Below are positions 22,997 to 44,590 of a stretch of DNA of 44,590 bases, one piece after another. Location of the stretch: the NCBI GenBank assembly GCA_031289675.1, contig JAITOZ010000008.1:1-44590 (forward strand). Reading direction: 5' to 3'. The translations under genes were made by a program, and so were the position numbers. Each line of letters starts with the position of its first letter. Positions within the stretch are counted from its first letter, which is position 1. The notes beneath the pieces are model-generated. The model had not been told where the DNA came from. It did not search any database and worked only from the letters and a program-made list of their open reading frames with translations. The stretch is from Planctomycetaceae bacterium (GTDB lineage Bacteria; Planctomycetota; Planctomycetia; Pirellulales; Thermoguttaceae).

Positions 22997-24157
22997 TCAC
23001 CGTTTCCTTCTGCGCCATTTGAGGAAGTACCAAACCAGCAAGAGAATAAAAAAGGCACAAACTGAAATTTGACCGAATGTTTCGTTCGGCTTCTTTTCCT
23101 TTTCCGCCGGCTGCAAGTCGGGATTCCAAATCGGACAGCGTCCAATCAACAGCGGTGCGTAGTGCTGACCGTCCGCCGCATCGTAAATCCAAAGTTTATA
23201 CGGTACTGCCGCAACCGCCATATTGACCGCAAAGTCCGAAGCGTCCCCCGCCGGCATTCCTTCCGGCAGCGAAGTAACGCAAACAACAACGGGATTGCCC
23301 TGCGACTCATCGGTAAAAAGATAGATTTGATAATACTTTTCGATACCAAAAACGGAGCGGACATTTTCGTCTGTAATTTTTGTTTCAAGAATCCGTTTTG
23401 CTGTTCCGAAGAGCAGTACCGGTGTTCCCCGCACCGCTGCCGGATTGTTAAATAAATCGGTCTGCGGTATTTTATTACTGCGGGCCTCCCGTTCCAAATT
23501 TCCCGGCAGCGTTTTCGCAAGGCATTGCAGCAAACCGTAAAACGGTTCGTTATCATTTTCGGTTAACTTGAAAGCGGTACGTTTTGTTTCGTCATCGAGA
23601 GCGTCCATTTCTGTAACACGTTTAACAGGGACTTTATCGAAAGAACTCATATCGAAGTTCAGATTACCGAGAAACGTATCGGGATACCAGCGGATTGCCG
23701 GTGTTATAAAAACGGTTTTTTTATTTTTTCGCAACAGTAATCCGGTGAACCGGCAGCGTTCGGACATTGTTTTGTCCATCTGCCAAGCCGCCGGTACGGA
23801 CGGCGTTAGGACTTCTGCTTCGCTGCCGTCCTGCAATTTGACTTTGCAGCGGAAAACGTTTGTTTTTCCGGCAAACGGGGCGGCGTGAATGACGGCGGCG
23901 GCGGCTTGATACAGATTGCCGGCAGCGGCGGTATCCTTTTTGTAGTCTGTTTGATTTTCGAGAATGAAGCGTTTCGGAACGGTATTGCTCAACGTGTGCA
24001 TTAAACGGACAATCGGTTCCGCTTGTGTTTCGAGCGGAACGTCATCATCCGTCAATGATTGCCAAGCGGCATCATTGTTTTGCAAAAACATCTTTGCCGG
24101 TGTTTTCTCCAAAACATCGGCATCCAGGACGGCGAGGAAAAATAAAACAATTAACAT
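22997..24157 (-). CDS. Hypothetical protein with a C-terminal TM anchor
   Basis: 386-aa ORF with native-looking composition. C-terminal ISVCAFFILLLVWYFLKWRRRKR. The N-terminus MLIVLFFLAVLDA is hydrophobic and has no basic n-region. I recognise no domain. Confidence 0.6.
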   Translation of the reverse strand: MLIVLFFLAVLDADVLEKTPAKMFLQNNDAAWQSLTDDDVPLETQAEPIVRLMHTLSNTVPKRFILENQTDYKKDTAAAGNLYQAAAAVIHAAPFAGKTNVFRCKVKLQDGSEAEVLTPSVPAAWQMDKTMSERCRFTGLLLRKNKKTVFITPAIRWYPDTFLGNLNFDMSSFDKVPVKRVTEMDALDDETKRTAFKLTENDNEPFYGLLQCLAKTLPGNLEREARSNKIPQTDLFNNPAAVRGTPVLLFGTAKRILETKITDENVRSVFGIEKYYQIYLFTDESQGNPVVVCVTSLPEGMPAGDASDFAVNMAVAAVPYKLWIYDAADGQHYAPLLIGRCPIWNPDLQPAEKEKKPNETFGQISVCAFFILLLVWYFLKWRRRKR

Positions 24158-24185: not shown

Positions 24186-25124
24186 TTACAAATTGGCACT
24201 GTACGGCAGACTCTTGATATAATTTTCCATAAAATCCCAATCCGGCGTGCCGTCGGATTTTACCGGCAATTTGATACTCCGTTCTTTCAACCGTGTCTGA
24301 CTTGCCTTCAATCCATAATTGTACCGGTACTGTTCCCGATTCAAAATTGTTGCCAAAAAAAGAGCAACAAACCGGCTCATCGGAAACTTCGGAATCAATT
24401 TTTCAACGTGGTCGCTTGCCGCAAAATCAAATTCCTGATGCGAGCAAAAGCCGATGACCGCACTGTCAACAGTTAACACGTTCCCTTTTTCCGTTGCCTT
24501 ATCGTAAAAACCCGCTACGCCGTTGTTTGTCGCCTGCGTGGTAACATACGGATAAATTCCCTTACCAATCTCTTCCAAATCCGGTAACGGAGTTGTTTTT
24601 GTTCCTGTAATCTCGAATAAATCACTCAAATTAAAAGTTTTCCAACTTTTAACATTTAATTCGATTTTATATTTGTTCAATGGTTTTCTATCAAACGTCA
24701 TAACAGCAGAATACTTTTTTAGAAAAGGAGGTAATTCCGGCGGTGCCGGTACGAGAATAGGACGCAGTGTTTTGTTTGCCTGCCGCCCATAATTATACCG
24801 GTATTTATTTTTCTCAATAACGGAACAATAATAGAGCATCTCGACCGGCGATAATTTGTATTTCGGATACAAACAGGCAACGTGAAATGCGGTGTAAAAT
24901 GGTAACGGCTGGTAAAAAGACGCAAGAACAGAGCCGCTCATAGCAACGGAAATTGCTCTGCCCGGCATCGGTTTTATATGGGGGATAACCGCGACTTTTG
25001 CAGCAACACCGTTATTTTCGGCTGTTCGTGAAACGAAAGGAATTCCGTCAGGAGATTCCTCACATTTTATTAACTCCAAACTGTTCCCGTAACGAATGTT
25101 GAAAATTTCGTCAAGCCGCATCAT
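24186..25124 (-). CDS. Restriction-modification specificity subunit with two target-recognition domains (BcgI-B-like)
   Basis: Two ~150-aa half-repeats, each ending in an (Y)RYNYG(R/L) motif: NKYRYNYGRQANKTL and EQYRYNYGLKASQTRL. The start overlaps the stop of the upstream methylase/nuclease gene by 4 nt. Confidence 0.75.
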   Translation of the reverse strand: MMRLDEIFNIRYGNSLELIKCEESPDGIPFVSRTAENNGVAAKVAVIPHIKPMPGRAISVAMSGSVLASFYQPLPFYTAFHVACLYPKYKLSPVEMLYYCSVIEKNKYRYNYGRQANKTLRPILVPAPPELPPFLKKYSAVMTFDRKPLNKYKIELNVKSWKTFNLSDLFEITGTKTTPLPDLEEIGKGIYPYVTTQATNNGVAGFYDKATEKGNVLTVDSAVIGFCSHQEFDFAASDHVEKLIPKFPMSRFVALFLATILNREQYRYNYGLKASQTRLKERSIKLPVKSDGTPDWDFMENYIKSLPYSANL

Positions 25125-26944
25125 TCTTCCACCCCGCTCAAAAATTTGTAAGCAATATACGCCTTAATCTTTTCAGCAAAAGCGGTTTCTGTCAACGTAC
25201 TGTAATCCGTTTCCATATAGGATTCAGCGCACCACTCGTCATCGGCAGTTACGGCTTTCGTGATACTTAAACCGGGTTTTGTCTTGCGGTTCATAAAAAG
25301 TGTCATCCACTCCGCTTTAATCCGGTTCTTAAATTCGTTGAAGAGGTCAATCCGTCCCTTGTTTTTTCGCTTAACGAAGCCGTCTTCTTTGAAATAGCCG
25401 AAGAAAACTTCTTTGTTTTTCGGGTGAGGACGTTTCGCAGTGAAAACCATAATACAGGAAACTACATTGACTTTAGAATTGAAAAACAATTCATTCGGCA
25501 TTGAAAAGACCGCCTCCAATGTGTGGAGTTGCAATACTTTCTTTTTGAATTCATATACTTTGCCGTTTGTTGCCAATGCTGCCTGCATTGGAACAATCAC
25601 AACACAACGTCCGCCTTGTTCCAAACATTCCAGATTATTGAGGATAAATTCGAATTCGTCTGTATCTCTTTTCTTATCCCCTTTGTAAGGCGGATTGAGC
25701 AAGCCGACCGTCGGATGGTACTTTTTGACCTGCTCCATTATTTCTTCGTCAAAACAACTGCCGTTCAAAATGTTCGTCTTGCCGTCCTGATGAATGAACA
25801 TATTAGAACAGGCAAGTGAAAAGATGTGTGCCTGATATTCGACTCCGATAAGTTGTTTCTGCTTGATACGGCGGATAGTTGCCGAATCCCATTCGGCATC
25901 TGCAATCATTTGTTTCATTGCAGAGACCAAAAAGCCGCCGGTGCCGGTACAGTTGTCGTAAATCACACTGTCTCTGTTGACTTCGGCGACACTTGCCATA
26001 AACTCCGTGATGTGCGGCGGTGTCAGAACAATACCCAGTCCTTTATCAGAATTAGCATAGCGTAAAAATTCGACATACAGTTGTCCAAGAACGTCAAAGT
26101 ATTCGTGAGTCTTGATGAAATCTCTAATGTTCGAGTCCACATCACCGATAACGTCGCGCAAAACATTGTCTTTCTTGGACAATGTTGTATCGGTCGTGAT
26201 GAAGGCAAAGCGGCTGCTTAAAATTTCCAGTTTTGCGGAATCAATTTTGCCGTTTTGGAATTCATTTTTAACCGTCAGCACCAAATAATCGGCTAATTGT
26301 TTCGGATTCGTGTACGTGTGATATGAAGCGGCAAATCCCTTATTTTCCAAAGCGATAAGAATACAACTCAAAAGAAGCCCCCGGTCGCTTTCAACGATTT
26401 TATGCGTGTGCAGATTTTCATTGAGTTGCCGGGCAAAGTCGAGCAGATTATCGTAATCCTGGCGGAACTTTTCGGGACTCTGAATATATCCGGTGCGGTA
26501 ATCGTCCGTCGGCAAAAGGGAATTGCCGAACATCAACACTGTTTTGGTCTCCCCTTTCAACTGCAAGAAGTGCGAGACTTTTAACTGACCGGCAGTTTGA
26601 CCGCTTACGGCAATGGATAGCACATCATAATCCTTTGCCAAATACGAGGCGTAAAGCAAAACGCCGTCAACGGCGTAATCCTTGTACTGGTCACGTGTGA
26701 GGCTTTCGTGCTTGTTCGTTTCCGGCTTACATTCGATGACAATGATGAATTTCGGGTCGTGCTTGTATTGAATAATGAAATCCGGCTGTCCTATTCTCTC
26801 TCCGCTTTTGGAGGCGGTCGAAAGCAATTTTTGAATCTTTGCATTATCCGACCGTTGTTCCTCGACAATCACGTCATCGGCAAACTTTTCAAAATGTTTT
26901 CGGACAACCTGTTCCGTTTTGCGTTCGTTTGACATAATGTCCAT
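25121..26944 (-). CDS. Fused PD-(D/E)xK endonuclease and N6-adenine DNA methyltransferase (BcgI-A-like type IIB R-M enzyme)
   Basis: N-terminal GQPDFIIQY...FIIVIECK (PD...ExK, nt 26726-26785). HsdM-like TPPHITEFM...DNCTGTGGFL (motif I) and NPPY (nt 25685-25696). No HsdR gene nearby. ATG 26944 is chosen because of the promoter at 26984-27012; ATG 26935 is also possible. Confidence 0.75.
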   Translation of the reverse strand: MDIMSNERKTEQVVRKHFEKFADDVIVEEQRSDNAKIQKLLSTASKSGERIGQPDFIIQYKHDPKFIIVIECKPETNKHESLTRDQYKDYAVDGVLLYASYLAKDYDVLSIAVSGQTAGQLKVSHFLQLKGETKTVLMFGNSLLPTDDYRTGYIQSPEKFRQDYDNLLDFARQLNENLHTHKIVESDRGLLLSCILIALENKGFAASYHTYTNPKQLADYLVLTVKNEFQNGKIDSAKLEILSSRFAFITTDTTLSKKDNVLRDVIGDVDSNIRDFIKTHEYFDVLGQLYVEFLRYANSDKGLGIVLTPPHITEFMASVAEVNRDSVIYDNCTGTGGFLVSAMKQMIADAEWDSATIRRIKQKQLIGVEYQAHIFSLACSNMFIHQDGKTNILNGSCFDEEIMEQVKKYHPTVGLLNPPYKGDKKRDTDEFEFILNNLECLEQGGRCVVIVPMQAALATNGKVYEFKKKVLQLHTLEAVFSMPNELFFNSKVNVVSCIMVFTAKRPHPKNKEVFFGYFKEDGFVKRKNKGRIDLFNEFKNRIKAEWMTLFMNRKTKPGLSITKAVTADDEWCAESYMETDYSTLTETAFAEKIKAYIAYKFLSGVEE

Positions 26945-26983
26945 TAGACCTGTTCCAGAACCTGCGCTTTCAATTCTCCGTTG

Positions 26984-27012
26984 AGTATAGAGCAGACGAG
27001 TTTTGTCCGCAA
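26984..27012 (-). promoter_or_regulatory. Sigma70-like promoter of the R-M operon
   Basis: Minus strand: TTGCGG (27012-27007), a 17-nt spacer, then TATACT (26989-26984), about 40 nt upstream of ATG 26944. Confidence 0.4.
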
Positions 27013-27117
27013 GAGGTGCAATAGGATTCAGAGCCGCCGTCGCAAGATGACGGACACTTCGCAATCTTGCGGTTACGGCTTGATGCTCTGCTTTTCTTGC
27101 GGAGATAGATACTTAAC

Positions 27118-31837: not shown

Positions 31838-32047
31838 AGTGTTTCCCTACCCCTCCTACGGGGCTGTTGCAATGCCGGTCGGAGTCAATAAGGTTTGCAG
31901 CCTCTTTGTAACACTCTTTTCGTTCTTGCCCGTTTTTAGAAGTTGCCTCTCAAAACGGATACGAAACAATTTTTTTCTATTTTCCGCTAATGCGGTTTTT
32001 GCGGGCGTAGCAGATTGTTGCCCTTAAAGTTCCGCTATTTTATTTAC

Positions 32048-32076
32048 TTTAACATATCACTCCGTTCGATTATAAT
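32048..32076 (+). promoter_or_regulatory. Candidate promoter of the giant-gene pair
   Basis: TTTAAC (32048-32053), a 17-nt spacer, then a perfect TATAAT (32071-32076), about 30 nt upstream of GTG 32105. Confidence 0.3.
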
Positions 32077-32104
32077 CGGGAGAGTCTTGTTATATGCAGA
32101 ATTT

Positions 32105-35100
32105 GTGCGCAAAATACCGCTGTTTCACCCCTTAAGGGGATTATTGGGGATACTGTGTCTGCTGCCGCTTGCCGTTTCGGTATACGGACAAGGGACAGCC
32201 TCCGGAACAGCAGCACTGCCCGCTGGCACGCCGAACATCCAAAAAGTCCCGCTCGATGCCGTTGTCGTTTTCAACCCCGAAGGAAAACGCTCTATCTATC
32301 TTCCCGAAGGATGGCCGCTCAACGTCCTTGACGAGTTCCATCACTTTTTATTGCAAGACCAGCAGCCCGCCGTGCCGTTCGTCATTCAAGATGTTTCGGC
32401 AAGCGGTAAAGTGAACGGGAACCGCATCGAAGCATCCGCAACCATCTCGTTAACGATACCCTCGTCAAGCGTTACAGGCGGTATAACCGCTGCAAGCCGC
32501 AGTGTCCGGGTACCGCTTGCTTTGCGGGAAGCCGTCATTGCCGGAAACGGGAACATCACCGTGAACGATAAAAACTGGCAGGCGTTTCTCCTTGCCGACG
32601 GCAGCGGTTATGCGGTTTTATTGACAAGCAAAGAGAGCGGAAACGCTCCCGTTGCGCTGAAACTGGAATTGCCGCTGTGGTTTCCTATCCGGAATAACGG
32701 CTTTTCCATTACCTATCCGCTGACAGCATCTTCATCATTTTTATTACAAATACCGGAAACAGGTATTGAAGCAGCCGTTACGGGCAATTCGCTGCTCGAC
32801 CTCAAAACATCGGAAACAATCACCGAAATAAAAATGACCGGTTTGCGCAGCACAACCGAAATCCGCTGGCAAAAGAAGGATACGCAAAAAACAGAGGCAG
32901 GCATCTTGACGGTCGAAAAAGCGTTTTACGCTTATAAACTCGATGCTGCTTCAAGCGTTTGCGAAGCCGTCATTCCGGTAAGCATTTCGGCGGGCAGTAT
33001 CAGTAAATTGCAGATAAGGCTGCCGCAAGAAACGAAAATCGATATGGCGGCAACAGAAATATTGTCCGCCGGAAATTATTCGGTCAGTGTGCCGGACAAA
33101 GATTTTGTAACGAATATTCTCTTGACGGACAAGGTGGCTTCGCAAGTGACGCTTAAGTTAAAAACGCTTCAGGTCTTTAAGTCCAATGAAACCGGTTTTA
33201 CACGGGAATTAAACGGTTTTGAAGTCGTCGGAGCAGAACGTCAATCGGGCAGTTTATCGGTGTCGGTTCCGGCGGGAATGAAATCCAGTTGGGAATTAAG
33301 CAGCGGTATTCGGCGCACGGAAAATTTACCGTCAGAAAGCAAAGACGCACTGAAACCTTCGGGCAGCGTTCTCAACAGCACGGCGGCTTTCCACGAATTT
33401 ATTGCGCAGCCGTTTTCCTTAAAAGTCCGGGCGGCATTGCCGCAAACACGGACAAACGTCAAGGCGGAGTTTCAGTATTACGTCAGCAAAGGACTGTTGC
33501 AATTAACCGGACGCTTCGGCTACACCGTCAGCGGTTCCAAGACGGATAAATTATGGATACAGATGGCGGACAACCGGTGGAATGTCGAAGTCGGACCGCA
33601 AGGTCTTGTCGATACCGTGAATGTGGAACAAGACGAAAAAGGACTCTTGACGGTGCCGCTGCGTAATCCTGCTGACGGAACATTTACCCTTGAACTGCGC
33701 GCCTACCGGCTCTTATCGCCGGAAAAGGAACAAGGGCATCCGCCGAAAGCGGACGCACAGACAAATACACAACCGCTGGTTCTCACGCTGCCGAAGGCAT
33801 TGGTCACGTGGAACGAACCGGCACCGGTTGTCATTGCCGCCGCTAACGATGTTGAAATTCAGCCGATAGATACCGGCAGCGGCAGCAAAACACAGCAAAT
33901 CACGGGGTTAACACGTATCAGCCGCCCTTCGGCAGCACACCTTGATATTGCCGAAGGATTACAGCAAGAGCCGCTGTTTTATTTGAGCGAACCGACCGGC
34001 GGAACCTTTGCTGCGGATATGATTATTCACCGGCAGCAGGCGGCGGCATCAATACAGACCGAAATCCGTCCCTGCGATGAATATTCGTACGTTAGGGAAA
34101 CGATAGCATACAACGTTGCCTATCTGCCGGCAGACAAGTTGTATTTTCAGGTGCCGAAAAATATCGAGTCTGCCGGCAGCGTGCAAATTCGTTACGGAAA
34201 TAAAACATTAGAGTTGAGCGATGTTTCCGGCGATGACAAAAACAACGCATCGGAACGCTGGATAAAAAAAGTGTTACAATTACCAGAGCCGCTTTTCAAG
34301 TTTCAACTCACGCTACAGTATTCGATACCGAAGATTGTGCTTGCCGAGGGTGTGACCGAATCAATGACGCAGCAATTTGTTTTGCCGGTGAACATTCCGG
34401 TAGCGGAACATCGTGTCGATGTTACTCTGCCACAAGGCTACCGCATCGAATTACCGGAAGAACAAAATACAGAATGGACGGCGGTAAAAGACCGGCAAAT
34501 GACGGCATCGGATGTTTCCGCCGTTTTCCGGTCGTCCGAACCGGCAGAAAGAATTGTATTCAGAATTTCTGTTACGGAATCTGATTTTGATTCGGCACTC
34601 GTTGCCGAACGGACTTGGCTGCAAACTTGGTTAACCGGTACGCTCCGGCAGGATAGAGGAACCTATTTATTAACGGCAAAACGCGATTCGATAACGATGA
34701 GACTGCCGCCGGAAGCAGCAAGAGAGCAGCGGGTTTTCGTCCGCATTGACAATGTTCCCGTCAAGGCAGAGGTTTCCGCAGCGGGAGTTTTGTCTATTCC
34801 GCTGACGCTTCAGCAGCGTAACCGGCAGATTTATTTGGAAATTGATTACCGCTTTGATTCGGGAACGCTCGGCAATGCGGCGGTACTGACACCTCCTGTG
34901 TTCGAGAACGAAACGGTCATACGTTACGCTTTTTGGGAAATCATTCTGCCTTCACAGAAATATATCATCGGATTTCCGAAAGATTGGATACCGGAATACC
35001 GCTGGCTTTGGCGGGGCTTCTTTTTTAAGCGGACAGCGTCGATACAAAAAGAGGATGCCGGTTTGACTGCCGACCCCGCAGACGTTGCGGCAATCATCGC

Positions 35101-35545
35101 CCAATCGAATCAATATCTGTTCAGTTCTTTGCGTCCGCCGGAGAGTGTAACACTATACATTGCCGACCGAAGTTTTTTGGTCTTATCGGCAAGTGCGGCG
35201 GCATTAGTCGCCGGTTTGTTTTTGATTTACATACCGCAGTCAAGATATGCCGGTTCGCTTTTCGCTTTGGGAATTGCGCTGGCGGCAGTGATTTTTTACC
35301 GTCCTGCGCCGATGCTGTTGTTGCTACAAATGTCGGTTTTCGGCGTTTGCTTGGCTTTGCTCGCCGCATACATTCACCGAATATTTTATAAAAAGGATGT
35401 TTGGGATACCGGTACTTTGCCGGGCTGGGATGACGGTTTTGAACCGGCATTAACGCCGGTACCGAAACACGACTCCGGCAGCGCAATCTCCATCGAAGAA
35501 ATAAAGAGTCACGAATCGGGACACCTGACTCCTATAATACAATGA
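32105..35545 (+). CDS. Giant membrane-anchored protein, module 1: signal peptide, ~1,000-aa ectodomain, three C-terminal TM helices
   Basis: From GTG 32105 the N-terminus is (M)RKIPLFHPLRGLLGILCLLPLAVSVYGQG. The C-terminal hydrophobic helices are FLVLSASAAALVAGLFLIYIP, YAGSLFALGIALAAVIFY and MLLLLQMSVFGVCLALLAAYI. I recognise no domain. The stop overlaps the next ATG (ATGA). Confidence 0.7.
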   Translation: MRKIPLFHPLRGLLGILCLLPLAVSVYGQGTASGTAALPAGTPNIQKVPLDAVVVFNPEGKRSIYLPEGWPLNVLDEFHHFLLQDQQPAVPFVIQDVSASGKVNGNRIEASATISLTIPSSSVTGGITAASRSVRVPLALREAVIAGNGNITVNDKNWQAFLLADGSGYAVLLTSKESGNAPVALKLELPLWFPIRNNGFSITYPLTASSSFLLQIPETGIEAAVTGNSLLDLKTSETITEIKMTGLRSTTEIRWQKKDTQKTEAGILTVEKAFYAYKLDAASSVCEAVIPVSISAGSISKLQIRLPQETKIDMAATEILSAGNYSVSVPDKDFVTNILLTDKVASQVTLKLKTLQVFKSNETGFTRELNGFEVVGAERQSGSLSVSVPAGMKSSWELSSGIRRTENLPSESKDALKPSGSVLNSTAAFHEFIAQPFSLKVRAALPQTRTNVKAEFQYYVSKGLLQLTGRFGYTVSGSKTDKLWIQMADNRWNVEVGPQGLVDTVNVEQDEKGLLTVPLRNPADGTFTLELRAYRLLSPEKEQGHPPKADAQTNTQPLVLTLPKALVTWNEPAPVVIAAANDVEIQPIDTGSGSKTQQITGLTRISRPSAAHLDIAEGLQQEPLFYLSEPTGGTFAADMIIHRQQAAASIQTEIRPCDEYSYVRETIAYNVAYLPADKLYFQVPKNIESAGSVQIRYGNKTLELSDVSGDDKNNASERWIKKVLQLPEPLFKFQLTLQYSIPKIVLAEGVTESMTQQFVLPVNIPVAEHRVDVTLPQGYRIELPEEQNTEWTAVKDRQMTASDVSAVFRSSEPAERIVFRISVTESDFDSALVAERTWLQTWLTGTLRQDRGTYLLTAKRDSITMRLPPEAAREQRVFVRIDNVPVKAEVSAAGVLSIPLTLQQRNRQIYLEIDYRFDSGTLGNAAVLTPPVFENETVIRYAFWEIILPSQKYIIGFPKDWIPEYRWLWRGFFFKRTASIQKEDAGLTADPADVAAIIAQSNQYLFSSLRPPESVTLYIADRSFLVLSASAAALVAGLFLIYIPQSRYAGSLFALGIALAAVIFYRPAPMLLLLQMSVFGVCLALLAAYIHRIFYKKDVWDTGTLPGWDDGFEPALTPVPKHDSGSAISIEEIKSHESGHLTPIIQ

Positions 35546-38500
35546 TACGTATTTTTCGATTTACCTTTCCGATAATTTTTGCTGCGATAATTTTTGCTGC
35601 CGCTCCGCTGCTTTCCGGCGGTGAAACGGAGACTCTGCGCTACCGGCGTTGGCTTGCACCGTTAGAGCAAATCGAAAACTGGCCGTTTCCTCCCGGTCTC
35701 AACGTACCGATTGACCGGCAACTTTTTGAACAATATATCGAACAGTCTGTAACGGAAACACTGTTGTCGGAATCTTCCCCTGCTGTCTTTTCAAAAACTG
35801 TCCTCAAAGCGGAATTTGACGGCAAGTATTCTATTGCAGGAACCGGAATGTTGGAATTGCCGCAGCAGCGGAAAAATCCTGAATCTCTACCGCTTGAGCC
35901 TCTCAATATCCCCGTTCTCGGAGCAAGATGGAACGATGGAACGCAGGCATCATTCGTTTGTGTTCCAGAGGGAATGCTCCGGCTTGTTGTCCCGAATCAA
36001 AATGTCAAACGTCTTGATTTCCGCTGGTCGCTGCAAAACCATACACCGGCAGAAAGTTTGCCGGTGTTTAATATTGCTGTCCCGTTAAGTCTGCAAAGCG
36101 AGTTACAATTTGATATGCCCGATACGGTGATACCGGCATCGTCAAGCGGCATCTTTATTTCTGAAACAGAAAATAATTCTTACCGTAAATCCTGCCGGAT
36201 TTTACTGGGACAAGAGACGAAAACCACGGTAACGTTTCAATCGCTGGCAGAGAAAAGTGTTACAGAAAAAATGCCGTACCGTCAAACGGTTTCGTACCGC
36301 ATTACCGAACAGGGTTTAGATGTTACCGCCCGGTTTCTCTTTGAGAAAATCAATGTCCGTATCAACGAATTGTTTGCCGAGGTGGAAATACCGCTTCGGA
36401 TTACCGATGTCCGGTGCGGAGAACGCAGTATTGCTTGGCAAAAACTGCCGCTTCTCTCCGCTCAGACTGTCAGGATGGATTTATCCGGTGTCAGTGCGGA
36501 ACAGTTGCGGGATTTGACAGTTTTGGCAACAGCACCAGTGCGGGAAAATACGGATTGGAAATTACCCGGAATACAGATTAAAAGCAGCAATGTGTTTTGG
36601 CTCGAAACCCGATGCGGAGTTAATGTTTTCGCTCCGCTGCGAACGTCCGATATTTTTGTAACAAACGGCGTTCAGGTTACGCCGCGGACGGTTGTTGACG
36701 ATATACAGCGGGAACTTTTTACGTTTCAATACTTTGAGCCGGACGCTTCGGTTACGCTCAATACCCGCTACCACAAAGCACAGATGGAGTGTCAATCGGC
36801 AACACAGATTGTTTGGCGGACGGGTGTCATTATGGCAAATACCGTTTTGGAGTGTCAGCAGGAACAAGGCTCCCGTTTTGCTCTGGAATTTCCGCTAGGC
36901 GAAAACTGGATGATCGATTCCGTCAAGAGTTCCGAGAGAAACGAGACGGACAACGTCGAATCGTGGCAGATTTGGAATGACCCGCAAAAAAATGTGCCGC
37001 AAAAATTACTGATACAATTAAAACGTCCGCTGGAAGCGAAAAAAACGTTAATGTTGCAACTAAAAGGGCGGTATCTGAAAAATACCCAGCAGAAGTTTCA
37101 ACTCGAAACATTATTGCCGCTCAAACTTCCATTACTCAAAAGTTCACCGCATTTTATCGGCATTCAATTCGATGATATGCCGTTTCGTCTGCGTTCTGCG
37201 GCAGCAAAAGCCACCATCGCACATCATTTGACACAGGGATTGACCGGCAGTATTTTTATCCTGGATTCTCAAACGCAGACATCGGAATTAGCATTAGTGC
37301 GTGCAGAACCGGATTATACGGCAGAGATAGCGGAAAATATTCTGCTCGCCGAAAACGGAATTGCTGTAACATTTTTATTCCGGTGTCTGCCGGTCAATTC
37401 TTCGGCGGACAGAATCTATGTCCATTTTTCAGCAAAAAATCCCGCCGGTGAAAATTGGCTCTGGACAAGCAGTCAAAGCAATTTGCTGCCGCTTCGGGCA
37501 AAAAAATTATCCGAAAAAGAATTGCCGGAACTGCTGCCGGTTTTCAAAACGGAAGTCCGGTTAGAGGATTTACTTCAAGGTGAAACATGGGAGATACGTC
37601 TTCCGGCACTGCAAACGGAGCCGTTCGATTTACAGGCAGCGGCAACATTGCCGCTTGAGGAGTCGCTGACTGTTCCTTTGGCGGCACTGCCGGCTGCCGT
37701 GTCGCAAAAAGCGGAGATGACCGTATCGTCGCCGCACCGCTTTGATTACCGTATTGTCAATTCGCGGCTCCGCTCGGTCCCGTCGGCAGCGGAATCGTGG
37801 AACAGATATTCAGACATTCAGGCAGCGTTCCGCTATGATCCCGCCGAAGAGTTGCACCGCCCCGGTCAAACATCGCTGTCGTTACAAAAATTACTGCCGA
37901 ACGAAACGGTCAATCGTGCGTGGATTTGGTCGCTGCGGCTCAATTCACGCTACGAACCGGAAGGGAATATCAAACATAATGTGCTGATGTGTATCGAAAA
38001 CAGGGGACGGGAAAATATCACCGTGACCCTGCCTAACGGAATAAGTGTTACAGATATTTCGTCCGTCTTATGCAGCGGTACTCCGGCGGATTGGCGTGCC
38101 GGCGGAGGAACGAACGGTCCGGAAACATCAGGCAATAAAGAATCAAAAAGTAAAGAATCTGATGAGGCGGCACTGCGGCGTTCGCTTACCATTCCGCTGC
38201 CGGCGGGAAAACGTTTTGTAACAATAACGGTCGAATATTCTCATCGGGACGTTCCGCTGGTACAGCAGCGGAAAGTACGTCCGCGTTCTATCACAGCCGA
38301 CATCCCGGTACTCTCCGGTACTTGGACGGCTTGGTTTCCGCCTGATTATGATGTTTATCTGAACCGTACTTCCGTCTCCCCGGCAAAGCCGGCACATTTC
38401 TACGGACTTTCACGGTGTTTGGCATATTGGGGCAGCAGCAAGGGATTCAATCCGGGGTCGATTGAAGATTGGCAGCAGTTTTTTTCGCAGCAGCGGCAAG

Positions 38501-41500
38501 AGGAAGCGGCAGCCATAGCCGATAAGTTCTTCGCAGAAATGGATGAATCATTGAAAAAGAATCAAATTACATCTTGGGGGAATTTTTTGAATAACGACCA
38601 AATTTCTGCCAGCGTTCTTTTCCGCAGCGGTGAGAGCGTCAGCGTCAAATTACTGATTGATAAGCAGGCGTTTCGTTTTATCGGTATCACACCGGCAGCA
38701 CCGATTAACACTTTGATTGCTGTACCGGGGCGGTCTTTTACCGAAGAATTATTTGACCGCAGCGGACTGGTTTTGCTGGTGTCCTCCCGTTTGCGGGCAG
38801 ATAAAGTGAAGGAATACACGCTCGGTATCACCTCGCCGCTCCGGCTTCCGCTGTACCGGCAAATTCAATCCGAACACGCCGGTCATTGTGTCCGGTCTGC
38901 CGCCCCGCAAATTTTTGAACAGCCGGATAATAGAAAAGAAAAAGGACAAAGCGGCACGAACTTATCCGGCGTACCCCTTTGGGATACGCCGGCACATTGG
39001 GTTTCGGAAACGGCTCTTTCGGCATCGCCGTGGCTCGCTGCGCCGCCGTTCACCTCGTCTTTGAACGCCGATTGGCAAGCCGTTGAGTTGCCGGAGGAAG
39101 AAGAACAATTACTGCGCATCGTCCGCCGGGAAACAATGACGGCACTGCAATGGCTGGCGTTTCTTGCAACCGTCTTGATTACCTCCCGCAAAGCGTTGTC
39201 TTCGCCGGTACTCATTCTGCTTTTGCTTTTCGTAACAGAAATGATAGCAAGGACTGTTATCGAATGTTACGTGATGATACCGGCAGGTGTGTTTCTCGGA
39301 CTTTGCGTTTCGCTGGGATTTACCTTGATATATTCCCGCCGCAATATCAAAATAGGGATGCCGCTGCCGCTACACACCATCAAGCCGTATGAATCGACAG
39401 AACTTGATGAACAATTTGTGCCGACGGCAATCCTCGACCGCCAGACGTTAACGACAGGCATAATTATTTTTGTAACGTTATTGTTCTGCCGGAGTACTGC
39501 CGCCGAAGAGACACTGAAACTTTCCGGCTTCGCTTCGCAGCCGTCATTGCCACAGGCACTAGTGCAAAAGGAAGCGTATCGGGTATTCTATCCGACCGAT
39601 TCTGACAAACAGATTGCCGGAAGTGAGGTTTGGCTGCCCTACGAATTTTTGAAGATACTTTCGCAGCAGCAAAAATCGGCGGCAGATACTGTTCAAGAGC
39701 ATTGGTCTATCGTGAGTGCGGAATATCAGGGTTCGCTGATTCGGAATCCGGCAACAGAGTCTCTCGAATCCAAAGGCGGTTTCACGGCGGAATTCACCGT
39801 CATACTTGACGGCGGTCGTGCCGAAATCACACTGGGAAAACTGCCGGTGCAGACGGCAGCGTGGGACGGCAAAACTGCCGCCGTAAGTCAGCGGCTTAAC
39901 AGCAAAAAAGAAACGGTTGCGGTGTTGCTCATCGAAAACGAAGTACCGGGAAAACATTTATTGAATGTCCGTATGCGGGAAACTGCCGTCAAAAGTTTGC
40001 CGCAGGGCAGCGGAATAACGTTTCCGATTCCGAAAATCCCTAACAGTACGCTGCGTTTGAGTCTACCGGACGCTGTGACAGATATTCATCTTGCCGATAG
40101 TTGCGGCAGCGTAACCCGGACAACACTTGACAGAAATATATTATCTGCCGATATAGGACCGGCAGATAATATTTCAGTCATTTGGGACAACGGTACAGAA
40201 ACGGCTGCGGTTCAGCGGACGAGTGTTGAAGAATATCTTTGGCTTTTCGCAAAAGCGGAACAGACGGAATTAAAAGCATTGTTCCGCTTTCATTTTGCAG
40301 ATAATCAAACGAGCCAGGTCAGCATTAAGGCAGACCCCCGCTGGCTGCGTTCGGGGCAGTTTCGATGCGATTCGGTGTCGATAACCGGTCAAGATACGGG
40401 CGATGTTACACAAATTACGTTCCGTTCTCCGCCGGACGGAGCGGTAACACTTCGGGCAGATTTTGTGCCGAAAAATTTTAGCGGTATCGGGAACGTTCTG
40501 ATGCCGCAATTTCAGGTCTTGCAGGCAAAGACGGCAAAAAAAATGCTGGCGGTATCGGCAGAAAACAATCTTGAACTCACACTGCCGCCGCTTGGTCAGA
40601 GCAGCAGTTTTCTCTCCGACTGGTACGGCGAAGGATTACTACTGGATAAGATTCTCGATACACGCTCTTGGAATACGGCTCCCGCAGCACAATATAACGT
40701 CACACCAATACTTCAGGACTGGGTGCTGGGTATTCAGGCAAAGAAAATACTGCCGGATGTAAGAATCAAGGAAGACGTTCTCTTTGATGTAAAGAAATCC
40801 GTTTTCGTAACAGCCGGCGAATTTGAAACAACTGCCGATATTTTTCAACTGCCGTTCATTTTTGATAAAGCGGCAGCGATTGACAGCGTTGAGGTTCGGG
40901 ACTCGCAAAATGGACTCCTTGAAAGCCGCTATGCAGCGGAAAATATGTTAACAGGAAATACGTCAACGGGAGGTACGGAGAGCGGAGCAGCAGATAAAAC
41001 GGGACGCGGAAAAATATTTTTCCGCAAGGCAGCGAAAGGAAAATTTTCTGTTACGGTAACCGGTTCATTCGATGCCGGTTCGCAGAAATTAGAGCCGATA
41101 CCGTCATTGATTTTTACGGATTGTAACGTTAAAGGTCAAACGCTCAATCTTTTCCGGCGTATTTCCACTTTAACAGAAATACACAGCGGACAAAGTGTGT
41201 GGATGAAATCGAATACCGTTCCGTCTCTGCCGGATGCTTTCGTCAGCCGGTCAGCCGCTCCGCTGGACGCAATCACCCTACCGATACTGCCGCTGGGACA
41301 ATATGATGCCGGTACGGCGGACGGTCGTTCTGTTTTTGCTCTGCCGCAGATGCCGCAGGTTCTTACCAAGGTAAACCTTCCAAACTTGCAAGGCGAAACA
41401 CGGCTGACGCTGCATCAGGAAAACGGCGGCTGGGCGATAGAGTATGCCGTTACCGGCAAAATCACCGGCGGAGAACTCAATGAATTCCGCTTGATTTGGG

Positions 41501-43176
41501 ATGAACACTGCCAAGGCGTGCAATCCGTTCAATGCGTCTCACAGCCCTGTGATTGGTCCCTGAAACAAACCGGCGGACATTCCGTCCTCGTGCTTTCACC
41601 GAAAACGCCGCTCACCGGTCATGTGCAGATACACATTAAAGCCGCTTTGCTGCAAGAGGCAGACGAAGTCAGCGTGCCGGTCATTTTTCCCGAAACTGCT
41701 TCGGCAGCGTTGCAAATGTTTGTGCAAATTCCGCAAAAAGCCGGCGAGGAGACACTACCTTGGAAATTGCAGTATCTTGATGTGGCAAAAGAGAACGATA
41801 CAAAAGAGAGCGGGAGATACAAGAATACACACCTCTTGTACCGCATCACCGATAAAGAATATCGGGCGAAAATAAAGCGGACAAATTATGCGCCGGTCAT
41901 AACATTACTCGATACCGGTTTTTTGTTACGCCCCGACGGAACACTCTTTGGATTAGCGGCGGCGGATATCAAAGTTTGGGGACAAGACTCTTGCAGTGTT
42001 CAGTTGCCTGCGGACTGTGAGGTGATTCAGATGACCAGCAACGGAATTATTTTGGGGGGAACGCAGCTCGGCAATAACCGGTGGCAACTCGACTTTTGGG
42101 ACAGCGATTATCCGCAGCGGTTGATTATCCTGTTCCGGCGGAATAAGCGGAATAATAAGAGTAACAATCATAACAAGAACGGTAAAGAACGGAGGGTAGA
42201 GGATGTGCAGGCGGCGGATAATTTATTGCGTTTTCCGCTGCCGGTTTTTGAAGGCATAAAAGTACAGGAAACCCTTTGGTCTCTTATCAAGGAAAGCGGC
42301 GCACCGCTGGAATATGATGTCCAAACGTTACAAAAAGTCCGAACACAGACAAACTGGGATGACAATACAGTGACAGATTTAGGTCGCCGTAAGTTTTTGA
42401 CCGGCAATGATATCGTGCAAACTCAAATTACGGTCAATTTAATCCGTCAACATCACTTATTGCGGCTCTTAAATTCGCTGCCCGCAGCGGCACCCGGACG
42501 GACAGAAGAGGTAAAACGCTGGTACTCGCATTGGTCGGCAGAGTGGGATAGTGTTACGGAAAAAATTAATTATCAGTCGGCATTGACAGCAGCATCGGCG
42601 GCAAACGAGCCGAACAGAAAACAGACGCTTTTGCTTGATTTGCAGCAGGAGTCCGCTCAAGCCGCTTCGACGGCAGTATTTTTAGAAACAATGACTTCAA
42701 AGACACGTGATGCCTTGCTGTTGGCGAAACAGCAAAGCGTGAAAGAAAAAATAGAGAATGTGCCGGGCGAGGGACAAACTGGCACTGCCGTTGCGGTGCC
42801 GATGCTCAATTCTCTTTCTTACTGGCAGGGTCGGCACGGCGGCGAAACGGTGTATCTTTTTGGTGTCAGCAGCGGGGCGGTGGAGGAAATACGTTTGACC
42901 GCCGGTAAAGGGGGCAACGTGTTTCCTTCTGCGGTTTCTTCGGTGTTTTGGATAGTATTGTGCGTTAGTGCAGCGATATCGATTCTGCTGTATTGTAACC
43001 GAATATTTGTAACAGAATTATTTTTACAATTTCCGCATTTTTGGGGAACCGTCGCGGGCTTGTTTCTTTGGTCGGCGACACCGTTGAGCGGAGCGGGAAT
43101 GATTATTGTGATTTTGACGCTACTGTCGCTTTTCCGTCCGTCTTGGCAGCGGAGAAAGATGCCGGAAAAACATTAG
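35542..43176 (+). CDS. Giant membrane protein (2,544 aa), modules 2 and 3
   Basis: N-terminal signal/anchor (FTFPIIFAAIIFAAAPLL), a central cluster of 3 TM helices plus an internal signal-anchor (nt ~39133-39510), and a C-terminal cluster of 3 TM helices. The uninterrupted 7.6-kb ORF has native composition. I recognise no domain. Confidence 0.75.
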   Translation: MIRIFRFTFPIIFAAIIFAAAPLLSGGETETLRYRRWLAPLEQIENWPFPPGLNVPIDRQLFEQYIEQSVTETLLSESSPAVFSKTVLKAEFDGKYSIAGTGMLELPQQRKNPESLPLEPLNIPVLGARWNDGTQASFVCVPEGMLRLVVPNQNVKRLDFRWSLQNHTPAESLPVFNIAVPLSLQSELQFDMPDTVIPASSSGIFISETENNSYRKSCRILLGQETKTTVTFQSLAEKSVTEKMPYRQTVSYRITEQGLDVTARFLFEKINVRINELFAEVEIPLRITDVRCGERSIAWQKLPLLSAQTVRMDLSGVSAEQLRDLTVLATAPVRENTDWKLPGIQIKSSNVFWLETRCGVNVFAPLRTSDIFVTNGVQVTPRTVVDDIQRELFTFQYFEPDASVTLNTRYHKAQMECQSATQIVWRTGVIMANTVLECQQEQGSRFALEFPLGENWMIDSVKSSERNETDNVESWQIWNDPQKNVPQKLLIQLKRPLEAKKTLMLQLKGRYLKNTQQKFQLETLLPLKLPLLKSSPHFIGIQFDDMPFRLRSAAAKATIAHHLTQGLTGSIFILDSQTQTSELALVRAEPDYTAEIAENILLAENGIAVTFLFRCLPVNSSADRIYVHFSAKNPAGENWLWTSSQSNLLPLRAKKLSEKELPELLPVFKTEVRLEDLLQGETWEIRLPALQTEPFDLQAAATLPLEESLTVPLAALPAAVSQKAEMTVSSPHRFDYRIVNSRLRSVPSAAESWNRYSDIQAAFRYDPAEELHRPGQTSLSLQKLLPNETVNRAWIWSLRLNSRYEPEGNIKHNVLMCIENRGRENITVTLPNGISVTDISSVLCSGTPADWRAGGGTNGPETSGNKESKSKESDEAALRRSLTIPLPAGKRFVTITVEYSHRDVPLVQQRKVRPRSITADIPVLSGTWTAWFPPDYDVYLNRTSVSPAKPAHFYGLSRCLAYWGSSKGFNPGSIEDWQQFFSQQRQEEAAAIADKFFAEMDESLKKNQITSWGNFLNNDQISASVLFRSGESVSVKLLIDKQAFRFIGITPAAPINTLIAVPGRSFTEELFDRSGLVLLVSSRLRADKVKEYTLGITSPLRLPLYRQIQSEHAGHCVRSAAPQIFEQPDNRKEKGQSGTNLSGVPLWDTPAHWVSETALSASPWLAAPPFTSSLNADWQAVELPEEEEQLLRIVRRETMTALQWLAFLATVLITSRKALSSPVLILLLLFVTEMIARTVIECYVMIPAGVFLGLCVSLGFTLIYSRRNIKIGMPLPLHTIKPYESTELDEQFVPTAILDRQTLTTGIIIFVTLLFCRSTAAEETLKLSGFASQPSLPQALVQKEAYRVFYPTDSDKQIAGSEVWLPYEFLKILSQQQKSAADTVQEHWSIVSAEYQGSLIRNPATESLESKGGFTAEFTVILDGGRAEITLGKLPVQTAAWDGKTAAVSQRLNSKKETVAVLLIENEVPGKHLLNVRMRETAVKSLPQGSGITFPIPKIPNSTLRLSLPDAVTDIHLADSCGSVTRTTLDRNILSADIGPADNISVIWDNGTETAAVQRTSVEEYLWLFAKAEQTELKALFRFHFADNQTSQVSIKADPRWLRSGQFRCDSVSITGQDTGDVTQITFRSPPDGAVTLRADFVPKNFSGIGNVLMPQFQVLQAKTAKKMLAVSAENNLELTLPPLGQSSSFLSDWYGEGLLLDKILDTRSWNTAPAAQYNVTPILQDWVLGIQAKKILPDVRIKEDVLFDVKKSVFVTAGEFETTADIFQLPFIFDKAAAIDSVEVRDSQNGLLESRYAAENMLTGNTSTGGTESGAADKTGRGKIFFRKAAKGKFSVTVTGSFDAGSQKLEPIPSLIFTDCNVKGQTLNLFRRISTLTEIHSGQSVWMKSNTVPSLPDAFVSRSAAPLDAITLPILPLGQYDAGTADGRSVFALPQMPQVLTKVNLPNLQGETRLTLHQENGGWAIEYAVTGKITGGELNEFRLIWDEHCQGVQSVQCVSQPCDWSLKQTGGHSVLVLSPKTPLTGHVQIHIKAALLQEADEVSVPVIFPETASAALQMFVQIPQKAGEETLPWKLQYLDVAKENDTKESGRYKNTHLLYRITDKEYRAKIKRTNYAPVITLLDTGFLLRPDGTLFGLAAADIKVWGQDSCSVQLPADCEVIQMTSNGIILGGTQLGNNRWQLDFWDSDYPQRLIILFRRNKRNNKSNNHNKNGKERRVEDVQAADNLLRFPLPVFEGIKVQETLWSLIKESGAPLEYDVQTLQKVRTQTNWDDNTVTDLGRRKFLTGNDIVQTQITVNLIRQHHLLRLLNSLPAAAPGRTEEVKRWYSHWSAEWDSVTEKINYQSALTAASAANEPNRKQTLLLDLQQESAQAASTAVFLETMTSKTRDALLLAKQQSVKEKIENVPGEGQTGTAVAVPMLNSLSYWQGRHGGETVYLFGVSSGAVEEIRLTAGKGGNVFPSAVSSVFWIVLCVSAAISILLYCNRIFVTELFLQFPHFWGTVAGLFLWSATPLSGAGMIIVILTLLSLFRPSWQRRKMPEKH

Positions 43177-43256: not shown

Positions 43257-44590
43257 CTAATCTATCCAACGCCGCTGGTGCAAATACCATTCGGCGGTTA
43301 TCAGGGCTAATGCGGCTAATGTCAGGTAAAACCAAAGCGGATACGCCGCAGCACCGGCGGTTTCGTCTGCTGGCGGTTGAGCGTAAAACGAATCATCGGC
43401 AAGACGCAGATTGCTTTCCCTGCTTGCCGCATTACCGCCTGACACCTGCGGCGGCGGCTGTGCTGTCAATGCCGATAATATGTTCGCCGCCAAAATCGGA
43501 AACGCCGTCTGCATTACGAGACCGCCCCGATTCAAATCCACCGTTAAAACAAAAGCGTTGCCGATACGCAGCAATAACGGATACTCGTCCGGCGTTTGCG
43601 CTAATATCTGAACATTCGCTGATGTGTTCTTCACAGCAGCGGGTATAACACGTCTCGCTCCGCTCCAAACGGTATTTTGTATTTTAATAGAGGATAACAC
43701 GTTTTGCGAATCATCCGGCACAACGCAAATCGGCTTTTCTAATTCCGCTCCCGTCTTGAACAGATTACAATCGCTGCGGGGGTCGATAATCCAAATACCG
43801 CCCTTCGGCAGTATTGACGGAACGGTTTGATGAATAACCAATACACTGTTTTCCGGCAACTCTGCCGGCAATTCTTTTGCATCCTGAATCCGTTTAATGT
43901 CAACGTTTGCCTGAACCTGCAACACCTGATTCAGAAAAAAATTGTCCGCTCCGAAAAGATATACCGTTTGCTTCGGGTATTTTTGCAGCACGGCAGTTGC
44001 GGTATTATCTGCCGGTAAAACATCGTCAACCGGCAGCGTTACCCGAAACGTTTCTTCGTCCGCTGAAATACCGCTGACAATTTTCGTAACAGGAACGTTC
44101 GGCTCTAATTTAACAGGAATCACATCAACAATGCGCCAGCCGTTTTCCGTTTTCCGTTCAATTTCCAACCGGCTTTCAACGCTTGCGGTTCCAAAGTTTT
44201 CGGCAGTTATCAGGATTTCATAACCGGCAGTTGCGTCAAAAGTCCGGCGGGGCTGAAATGCTGTTACAGCCGTATTGTCCGCCGGTTCGCCGATGGGAAC
44301 AAATTTCAGCCGGTTCGCTGCGGCAATTTGGTCTTTGTAACATCCGTCAGTATAAATGATTATCAGCGAATCTGTTTCACCGGCAATCAGTTCTTCGGCA
44401 AGTTTAACGGCTTCAGACATTGCGGCTTCTTCATCGGACGGTTCAATAGAATCAACCGCTCTGCGTAATGAACCGGTATTGTCCGTGAATCCGCAAACGA
44501 TTTTCGGCGTATTTCCCGCCGCAATGATTGCCGTTTTTCTCTGTGATAAGTTTGCCTTTAATTTTTGTTTCGCTTTTTGGAGACGTGTTA
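43257..44590 (-). CDS. BatA-like von Willebrand factor A (VWA) domain membrane protein, 5' end beyond the window
   Basis: The frame stays open to the window edge. The upstream residues ...TAIIAAGNTPKIVCGFTDNTGSLRRAVDSIEPS...DSLIIIYTDG match the end of a VWA fold. The C-terminal TM is YPLWFYLTLAALALITAEWYLHQRRW. Confidence 0.65.
   Translation of the reverse strand, partial: TRLQKAKQKLKANLSQRKTAIIAAGNTPKIVCGFTDNTGSLRRAVDSIEPSDEEAAMSEAVKLAEELIAGETDSLIIIYTDGCYKDQIAAANRLKFVPIGEPADNTAVTAFQPRRTFDATAGYEILITAENFGTASVESRLEIERKTENGWRIVDVIPVKLEPNVPVTKIVSGISADEETFRVTLPVDDVLPADNTATAVLQKYPKQTVYLFGADNFFLNQVLQVQANVDIKRIQDAKELPAELPENSVLVIHQTVPSILPKGGIWIIDPRSDCNLFKTGAELEKPICVVPDDSQNVLSSIKIQNTVWSGARRVIPAAVKNTSANVQILAQTPDEYPLLLRIGNAFVLTVDLNRGGLVMQTAFPILAANILSALTAQPPPQVSGGNAASRESNLRLADDSFYAQPPADETAGAAAYPLWFYLTLAALALITAEWYLHQRRWID

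Follow-up and report, generated by a model that had tools for sequence, protein, structure and literature searches.

Analysis of a 44,590-nucleotide stretch of DNA from a Planctomycetaceae bacterium (contig JAITOZ010000008.1 of assembly GCA_031289675.1; hereafter the window) revealed two adjacent open reading frames (ORFs), ORF1 and ORF2, whose products are built from three modules of approximately 1,150-1,250 amino acids (aa) each: M1 in ORF1, and M2 and M3 in ORF2. Profile comparisons identify M1, M2 and M3 as homologous, anciently duplicated copies of one module, and family searches place the pair in a large unannotated family that is not particular to this genome. The proteins are most likely a structural part of the unusual cell envelope of the Pirellulales. 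More specifically, though still tentatively, we propose that M1 and M2-M3 form a stoichiometric, non-enzymatic scaffold that is anchored in the cytoplasmic membrane and faces the periplasm.

Homology of the three modules

Single-sequence comparisons between the modules using BLASTP and phmmer were nearly blank, with best E-values of 0.002-0.005 (and others up to 0.2) confined to short stretches. In contrast, hhalign comparison of profiles built from orthologues of each module produced colinear alignments for all three pairs. M1 and M2 (residues 14-957 versus 6-935) aligned over 845 columns with a probability of 98.7% (E 4e-16), M1 and M3 (residues 11-973 versus 8-974) over 856 columns with 98.4% (E 5e-15), and M2 and M3 (residues 6-846 versus 10-878) over 776 columns with 98.1% (E 1e-13). 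Six reversed-profile controls scored 21-27 (E 0.1-0.4), as opposed to 131-152 for the real pairs, and aligned helix segments only. The initial annotation, which was made from the sequence without database searches, had pointed to a loose pattern shared by the starts of the three ectodomains and had proposed pairwise comparison of hidden Markov models (HMMs) as a check; in the significant alignments obtained here, the three quoted motifs indeed align together.

Within ORF2, the M3 HMM matched the M2 half at the corresponding positions and the M2 HMM did the same for M3, while the window proteins scored 1,807 bits with the M1 HMM, 1,718 with the M2 HMM and 1,559 with the M3 HMM. In every lineage, each module HMM retrieves its own orthologue, which dates the triplication to before the divergence of the sampled genomes. 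Self-comparison of the M1 profile also yielded an off-diagonal repeat with an offset of approximately 180 aa (96% probability, E 3e-9), and each module is therefore made of repeated units itself. The three modules differ in the final 250-400 aa that precede their membrane helices.

The two genes are long and lie on the same strand (+), as do all of their features described below; the ORF listing gives their outer limits as 32015-35545 and 35542-43176. A family profile search supports ORF1 at 32105-35545, encoding 1,146 aa from a GTG start at 32105, while the module HMMs support ORF2 at 35542-43176, encoding 2,544 aa from an ATG start at 35542. At the junction, which reads CAATGATAC, the TGA of ORF1 and the ATG of ORF2 overlap as ATGA (35542-35545), so that the 4-nucleotide (nt) overlap and the two protein lengths initially annotated are borne out. 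An alternative TTG start of ORF1 at 32087 would produce a protein of 1,152 aa, which is 100% identical to the public gene call (P0001). The longest version, from TTG at 32015, is unlikely because a promoter-like element (TTAACA-16 nt-TATAAT, 11 of 12 consensus matches) is located at 32049-32076, just 5' of the ORF1 start. With one such site found versus 0.8 expected in shuffled sequences, this element is only suggestive of a real promoter signal. The gene 5' of ORF1, at a distance of approximately 250 nt, encodes a SulP/DauA-type permease, and the gene 3' of ORF2 (43257-44420, -) is convergent.

Kyte-Doolittle scans reproduced the order of hydrophobic segments reported in the initial annotation, namely 1+3 in ORF1 and 1+3+1+3 in ORF2. 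ORF1 contains an N-terminal segment and a cluster at aa 1022-1095, while ORF2 contains a segment at aa 1-29, a cluster at aa 1211-1265, a single segment at aa 1303-1321 and a second cluster at aa 2459-2533. The ORF2 pattern is kept in homologues of only 19-22% identity (P0016-P0018), and, among 135 full-length ORF1-family representatives, 133 carry the C-terminal cluster. The putative signal/anchor of M1 is located at 32114-32197 (P0001 aa 10-37; helix 17-35 of the structural model described below) and its membrane-helix cluster at 35168-35404, where three hydrophobic spans correspond to four helical segments of the AlphaFold model (1028-1048, 1051-1071, 1073-1082 and 1084-1106). M2 begins with a putative signal/anchor at 35542-35628 (aa 1-29) and terminates in a cluster at 39154-39336 (aa 1205-1265). 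Following a linker of approximately 37 aa, which would be cytoplasmic, an internal signal-anchor helix at 39448-39504 (aa 1303-1321) would re-export M3, whose C-terminal cluster of three membrane helices occupies 42922-43134 (aa 2461-2531; 1126-1150, 1155-1177 and 1182-1196 in model numbering).

A Lys/Arg-rich stretch comes after the last helix of every cluster: YKKD in M1, SRRNIK in M2 and RPSWQRRK in M3. It is well established that such positively charged stretches tend to be retained inside the cell (the positive-inside rule), and the clusters would hence end in the cytoplasm with the large domains outside, in line with the transmembrane parity first noted for the pair. The signal/anchors and C-terminal helix clusters together would thus place the large domains of all three modules outside the cytoplasm, with only small cytoplasmic portions: a tail of approximately 50 aa, the linker of approximately 37 aa and a tail of approximately 10 aa.

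Distribution and gene order in the Planctomycetota

Word-indexed homologue searches returned only 6-13 relatives, all from Planctomycetota assemblies and all annotated solely as "hypothetical protein". An exhaustive HMMER search with a profile of the ORF1 family yielded 2,709 clusters (50% identity, E ≤1e-3), 988 of them at E ≤1e-30, with most being 1,050-1,300 aa long and matched over their full length. Furthermore, a non-exhaustive scan of one genome per GTDB species, using a single conserved peptide pattern, produced 124 confirmed hits, of which 80 loci were listed. These are all from Planctomycetota, mostly Pirellulales, with the exception of one contig (JABMRB010001437.1, locus L058) that was assigned to Candidatus Nealsonbacteria, probably through mis-binning. 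They include assemblies labelled Thermoguttaceae, Pirellulales, Lacipirellulaceae, Blastopirellula and Thermogutta, as well as many metagenome-assembled genomes (MAGs) of termite-gut "Planctomycetaceae". As far as sampled, the family appears to be large, old and restricted to Pirellulales-type planctomycetes. The pair in the window shares the features of this family, that is, a full-length profile match, the gene order and the C-terminal helix clusters.

When the three module HMMs were scored on the listed loci, the M1 gene was found to be directly followed by M2(+M3) in 62 of them, and an ATGA-type overlap of -4 is possible in 36 of these 62. The 62 loci are drawn from different Planctomycetota genomes, and their flanks vary and consist mostly of housekeeping genes. 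In one termite-gut Planctomycetaceae MAG, a single ORF of 3,521 aa (P0026; locus L015, 3042-13634) fuses M1, M2 and M3 and retains a 1+3+1+3+1+3 pattern, the signal-anchor of M2 being inserted after the M1 tail as a connecting helix. The element that links M2 to M3 in the window also links M1 to M2 in this natural fusion. A partial protein of 1,975 aa (P0028) resembles a second M1-M2 fusion.

Two neighbours of the pair recur: an inositol-monophosphatase (IMPase)/HisN-like gene, which is immediately upstream on the same strand in 27 loci (e.g., L004, 5654-6484), and a RimI-type acetyltransferase gene, which is downstream in 14 loci (e.g., L001, 16949-17464). Neither is found at the corresponding position in the window, and we read both as housekeeping synteny rather than as functional partners. 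A link to sulfur metabolism, prompted by the SulP gene of the window, a sulfatase in L001 and a CysQ-like gene upstream of the pair elsewhere, was also dropped, as these neighbours are not the same in different lineages and planctomycetes are rich in sulfatases.

Predicted structure and relation to known proteins

AlphaFold models were predicted independently for M1 (full-length P0001) and M3 (ORF2 aa 1336-2535), with nine sequences each, and reached a mean predicted local distance difference test (pLDDT) of 71 and 67 and a predicted template modelling score (pTM) of 0.38 and 0.41, respectively. Both models present the same succession of a short N-terminal helix, approximately 850 aa of serial β-sandwich units, a membrane-proximal β-hairpin and a three-span helical cluster; in the M3 model, additional long helices precede the hairpin. 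In M1, the predicted periplasmic all-β array extends over 32381-34966 (P0001 aa 99-960, as assigned by DSSP on the model) and contains the repeat of approximately 180 aa. The corresponding domain of M2 lies at 35629-39153 (aa 30-1204) and includes, 5' of the membrane cluster, an M2-specific insert at 38329-39141 (approximately aa 930-1200), which is missing in the homologue P0017 and shortened in the fusion P0026. That of M3 lies at 39505-42915 (aa 1322-2458), where the β array is followed by an M3-specific helical subdomain (42406-42756, aa ~2289-2405) that is conserved in distant homologues, with R2302, R2326 and W2331 being invariant. The models confirm the β-rich segments seen in the initial annotation. 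Its statement that no immunoglobulin-type signature is present holds at the level of sequence, but not for the predicted fold, which is a chain of β-sandwiches.

Curated family searches were negative. Neither the window proteins nor 21 diverse members nor the family consensus sequences matched any Pfam-A family (2025 copy), and Big, Cadherin, RHS and pAdhesive repeat domains were not found above the Pfam cut-off in the window proteins or the 21 members. The sole Pfam trace is a sub-threshold match of the window protein to pAdhesive_11 (13.9 bits versus a cut-off of 24.3), with similarly weak matches in three of the 21 members at E ≤1 (best E 0.0016). NCBIfam 20 gave no match to the ORF1 and ORF2 proteins, profile searches of PDB sequences gave none to the family, and the PADLOC and PHROGs models gave none at E ≤0.01, providing no link to anti-phage defence or phage structure. 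Likewise, a literature search covering planctomycete giant genes, crateriform structures and ribophorin produced no description of the family. The initial view that the proteins carry no recognizable domain thus holds across these resources, and profile searches placed them in no characterized family. The family would lie outside the known kinds of system, although its role could turn out to be simply that of a structural spacer.

Foldseek comparison of the M1 and M3 models with the PDB returned a shared set of neighbours, comprising ribophorin I/Ost1, integrin alpha legs, PIG-T and the N-terminal domain of LTA4H, together with CD109, alpha-2-macroglobulin and TEP1; viral structures returned generic β arrays only. 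The best match of both modules is ribophorin I/Ost1 (8b6l_O, 6s7o_E, 6ezn_A and 6c26_1; E 1e-8 to 2e-10), a non-catalytic subunit of oligosaccharyltransferase with which they would share a signal peptide, tandem non-cytoplasmic β-sandwiches, a C-terminal membrane anchor and the lack of catalytic residues. However, Ost1 is eukaryotic, whereas the host of the pair is bacterial, and Ost1 consists of two sandwiches and one helix, compared with three helices and roughly five or six units of sandwich size in each module. Although Foldseek assigned a probability of 1.0, the target-normalized TM-scores are only 0.20-0.33, with root-mean-square deviations (rmsd) of 15-38 Å and models of pTM ~0.4. Furthermore, Pfam Ribophorin_I (PF04597) was not matched at E ≤0.1 to 1 by the window proteins, the 21 diverse members or the consensus sequences.

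At the level of single domains, the N-terminal β domain of LTA4H and M1 aminopeptidases also matches (rmsd 5-8 Å over 195-240 columns, probability 1.0), as does PIG-T, the scaffold subunit of glycosylphosphatidylinositol transamidase (E 1e-4). These domains belong to enzymes or enzyme complexes, while the modules possess no peptidase or transamidase domain or motif. The integrin alpha legs (thigh/calf) and the macroglobulin (MG) arrays of alpha-2-macroglobulin, TEP and CD109 are similar in being long β-sandwich chains (Foldseek E 1e-5 to 1e-9), which in integrins terminate in a membrane helix. Yet with TM-scores of ~0.1 this likeness holds only at the level of an array of sandwiches, and the modules lack the β-propeller head, thioester domain and bait region of those systems; MG, A2M and thioester domains had no Pfam match, and the alpha-2-macroglobulin TM-scores are 0.05-0.07. 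We therefore describe M1 and M3, on the strength of the models, as a probable chain of Ost1- and LTA4H-N-like sandwiches with a membrane anchor, claiming no homology to those proteins.

The Bat/aerotolerance-type operons, which are common in bacteria of the Planctomycetes-Verrucomicrobia-Chlamydiae group, code for proteins of the envelope that combine large domains outside the cytoplasm with terminal membrane anchors, and the pair resembles them in both respects. A linkage to MoxR, DUF58 and VWA genes had been suggested in the initial annotation. It was not found: neither the window ORFs that were scanned, nor the genes called next to seven related loci, nor the recurrent flanking clusters include MoxR, DUF58, VWA or BatD.

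Among diverse members, P, W, G and L make up the overwhelming majority of the invariant residues, with no conserved His/Cys/Ser/Asp set of catalytic type. In the helix cluster of M1, R1028, Y1048 and R1053 are invariant and Q1081 is nearly so.

Possible roles in the planctomycete envelope

Taken at its fullest, the proposed scaffold would be one fixed-ratio complex of the cytoplasmic membrane, consisting of M1 together with M2-M3 on a single chain. Each module would be exported by its N-terminal signal or the internal signal-anchor, would set a β-sandwich chain of approximately 900-1,100 aa in the periplasm, and would be held in the membrane by a C-terminal hairpin bundle of three helices whose end is cytoplasmic. 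All nine helices of the clusters and the linker helix would probably pack as one membrane hub, from which three related arms may reach out into the periplasm, which is enlarged in planctomycetes. Such a complex would serve as a non-enzymatic envelope scaffold or spacer, or as a platform for other periplasmic components.

Gene fusion is a textbook sign that proteins associate, physically or functionally, and we infer co-assembly because the gene order is conserved, the overlap would allow translational coupling in many loci and natural fusions occur. A non-catalytic role is suggested since the nearest folds of M1 and M3 are non-catalytic membrane scaffolds and P, W, G and L predominate among the invariant residues. 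The initial proposal of a triplicated, uncharacterized envelope complex gains support from the homology of the modules, the absence of a curated family, the export and anchor signals, the gene order, the ATGA overlap and the fusions; the physical assembly, topology, periplasmic location and structural rather than catalytic role of the proteins are plausible on these grounds.

Several observations weigh against this proposal. An M1-like gene occurs without M2-M3 within 3-10 kb downstream in five loci (L008, L016, L018, L019 and L024), and three further loci (L021, L045 and L054) contain M1 and a separate M2 of approximately 1,450-1,500 aa with no detectable M3. Because such loci exist, a strict 1:1:1 complex is not universal. 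The topology is judged from hydropathy and charge alone, the confidence of the models is moderate and does not fix the packing of the domains, and fold neighbours with TM-scores of at most 0.33 would say little beyond "β-sandwich array". Finally, the polar R1053 and Q1081, in or near the helices, would equally fit transport or sensing. In L016, a downstream ORF of 1,798 aa is TPR-like and unrelated to M2 or M3.

The similarity to ribophorin I/Ost1 raises the question as to whether the modules are instead an accessory platform that holds substrates for a membrane enzyme whose gene lies elsewhere, in the manner of ribophorin I/Ost1 or PIG-T. The β-sandwich arms would in that case bind a glycan or polypeptide and present it to a catalytic partner, for example a glycosyltransferase, a polysaccharide synthase or a peptidoglycan enzyme. 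The top Foldseek rank of Ost1 for both modules, the PIG-T and aminopeptidase-domain matches and the want of a catalytic signature in the modules themselves all fit this possibility. We nevertheless consider it unlikely, as the TM-scores to Ost1 are low, Ribophorin_I is unmatched even at E ≤1, and no catalytic partner is conserved beside the pair, where the recurrent neighbours are the IMPase/HisN-like gene and RimI. In particular, STT3/PglB/AglB-type catalytic subunits were found neither among the scanned window ORFs nor among the called neighbours of related loci.

Planctomycetes possess an enlarged periplasm and crateriform pits with fibres, and divide without FtsZ. A more ambitious extension of the scaffold proposal, which we regard as rather doubtful, would be that M1 and M2-M3 constitute a pseudo-threefold machine of the cytoplasmic membrane, specific to Pirellulales-type planctomycetes, and hence a new class of envelope complex underlying an unexplained envelope feature. 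Such a feature could be, for instance, the means by which the periplasm is kept enlarged, the base of the crateriform structures with their fibres, or polar budding independent of FtsZ.

The conservation of the helix clusters bears on a further explanation, in which the approximately ten membrane helices form a conduit or gate and the arms a funnel, plug or force sensor, so that the complex would be a transporter, channel or mechanosensor. The clusters are among the best-conserved parts of the proteins, occur almost throughout the ORF1 family and carry the polar residues R1028, Y1048, R1053 and Q1081 in M1. This explanation appears improbable, however, given just three helices per module, more than 85% of the mass in periplasmic β-sandwiches and the absence of a transporter-family match or of an ATPase, energy-coupling or periplasmic-adaptor partner; SulP, encoded upstream in the window, is not a conserved neighbour of the pair.

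Long β-sandwich arrays would also suit a cell-surface adhesin or surface-layer-like protein exported past the cytoplasmic membrane, and the sub-threshold pAdhesive_11 matches and low-rank Foldseek matches to MSCRAMM adhesins (ClfA and ACE) and phage tail fibres point in the same direction. Against this, the three-helix clusters and the internal signal-anchor would keep the chains attached to the cytoplasmic membrane, and an outer-membrane anchor, a sorting signal and a secretion partner are all absent. Moreover, adhesins are typically variable and patchy, whereas M1, M2 and M3 are orthologous across the order in fixed housekeeping synteny, and we hold a role of this kind to be very improbable. 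Lastly, the notion that the three-module appearance is a chance of composition among unrelated, adjacent β-rich membrane proteins, with which the faint BLASTP and phmmer results might agree, carries a negligible probability: as far as sequence statistics reach, it is excluded by the profile-profile comparisons and reversed controls, and the cross-matches within ORF2 and the common architecture and fold neighbours of the independent M1 and M3 models also contradict it.

The remainder of the window is typical of a planctomycete chromosome, with genes for a Ser/Thr kinase-WD40 protein, RseP, a sulfatase, DUF1559, ProRS, HemL, a rhomboid protein and a type I restriction-modification system. The first of these (286-4050, +) encodes a 1,254-aa protein in which a Ser/Thr kinase domain at the N-terminus is combined with a WD40 β-propeller at the C-terminus; next comes the gene for an M50 protease of the RseP type that contains PDZ domains (4113-6221). 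A 610-aa ORF (15470-17302, +) fuses a MetX-like alpha/beta hydrolase to a MetW methyltransferase-fold protein. The restriction-modification region, with a methylase (N6_Mtase) and a specificity subunit (Methylase_S) at 24186-27064 (-), is the part of the window with the lowest G+C content (0.42 at 24-26 kb versus ~0.49-0.51 elsewhere) and may be a horizontally acquired island. Two ORFs of approximately 386 aa, the convergent one at 43257-44420 (-) and another at 22997-24157 (-), have no Pfam or NCBIfam match; they were considered as paralogues, which direct comparison rejected, as it showed no relation. The product of the former ends with a hydrophobic segment followed by HQRR.

According to a 2025 review, the players in macromolecule uptake are unknown and a large share of planctomycete genes has no known function (PMC12673574). 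A putative membrane assembly of approximately 3,700 aa, whose three paralogs keep a fixed gene order and are often translationally coupled in the genomes sampled, gut-associated lineages among them, is a testable candidate for a core component of the envelope. For annotators, several thousand "hypothetical proteins" can now be assigned to a definable family with three orthologous subfamilies. Should the complex prove to be a passive spacer, the gain would be modest; if it instead underlies a planctomycete-specific structure, the M1/M2-M3 pair would make that structure accessible to genetics.

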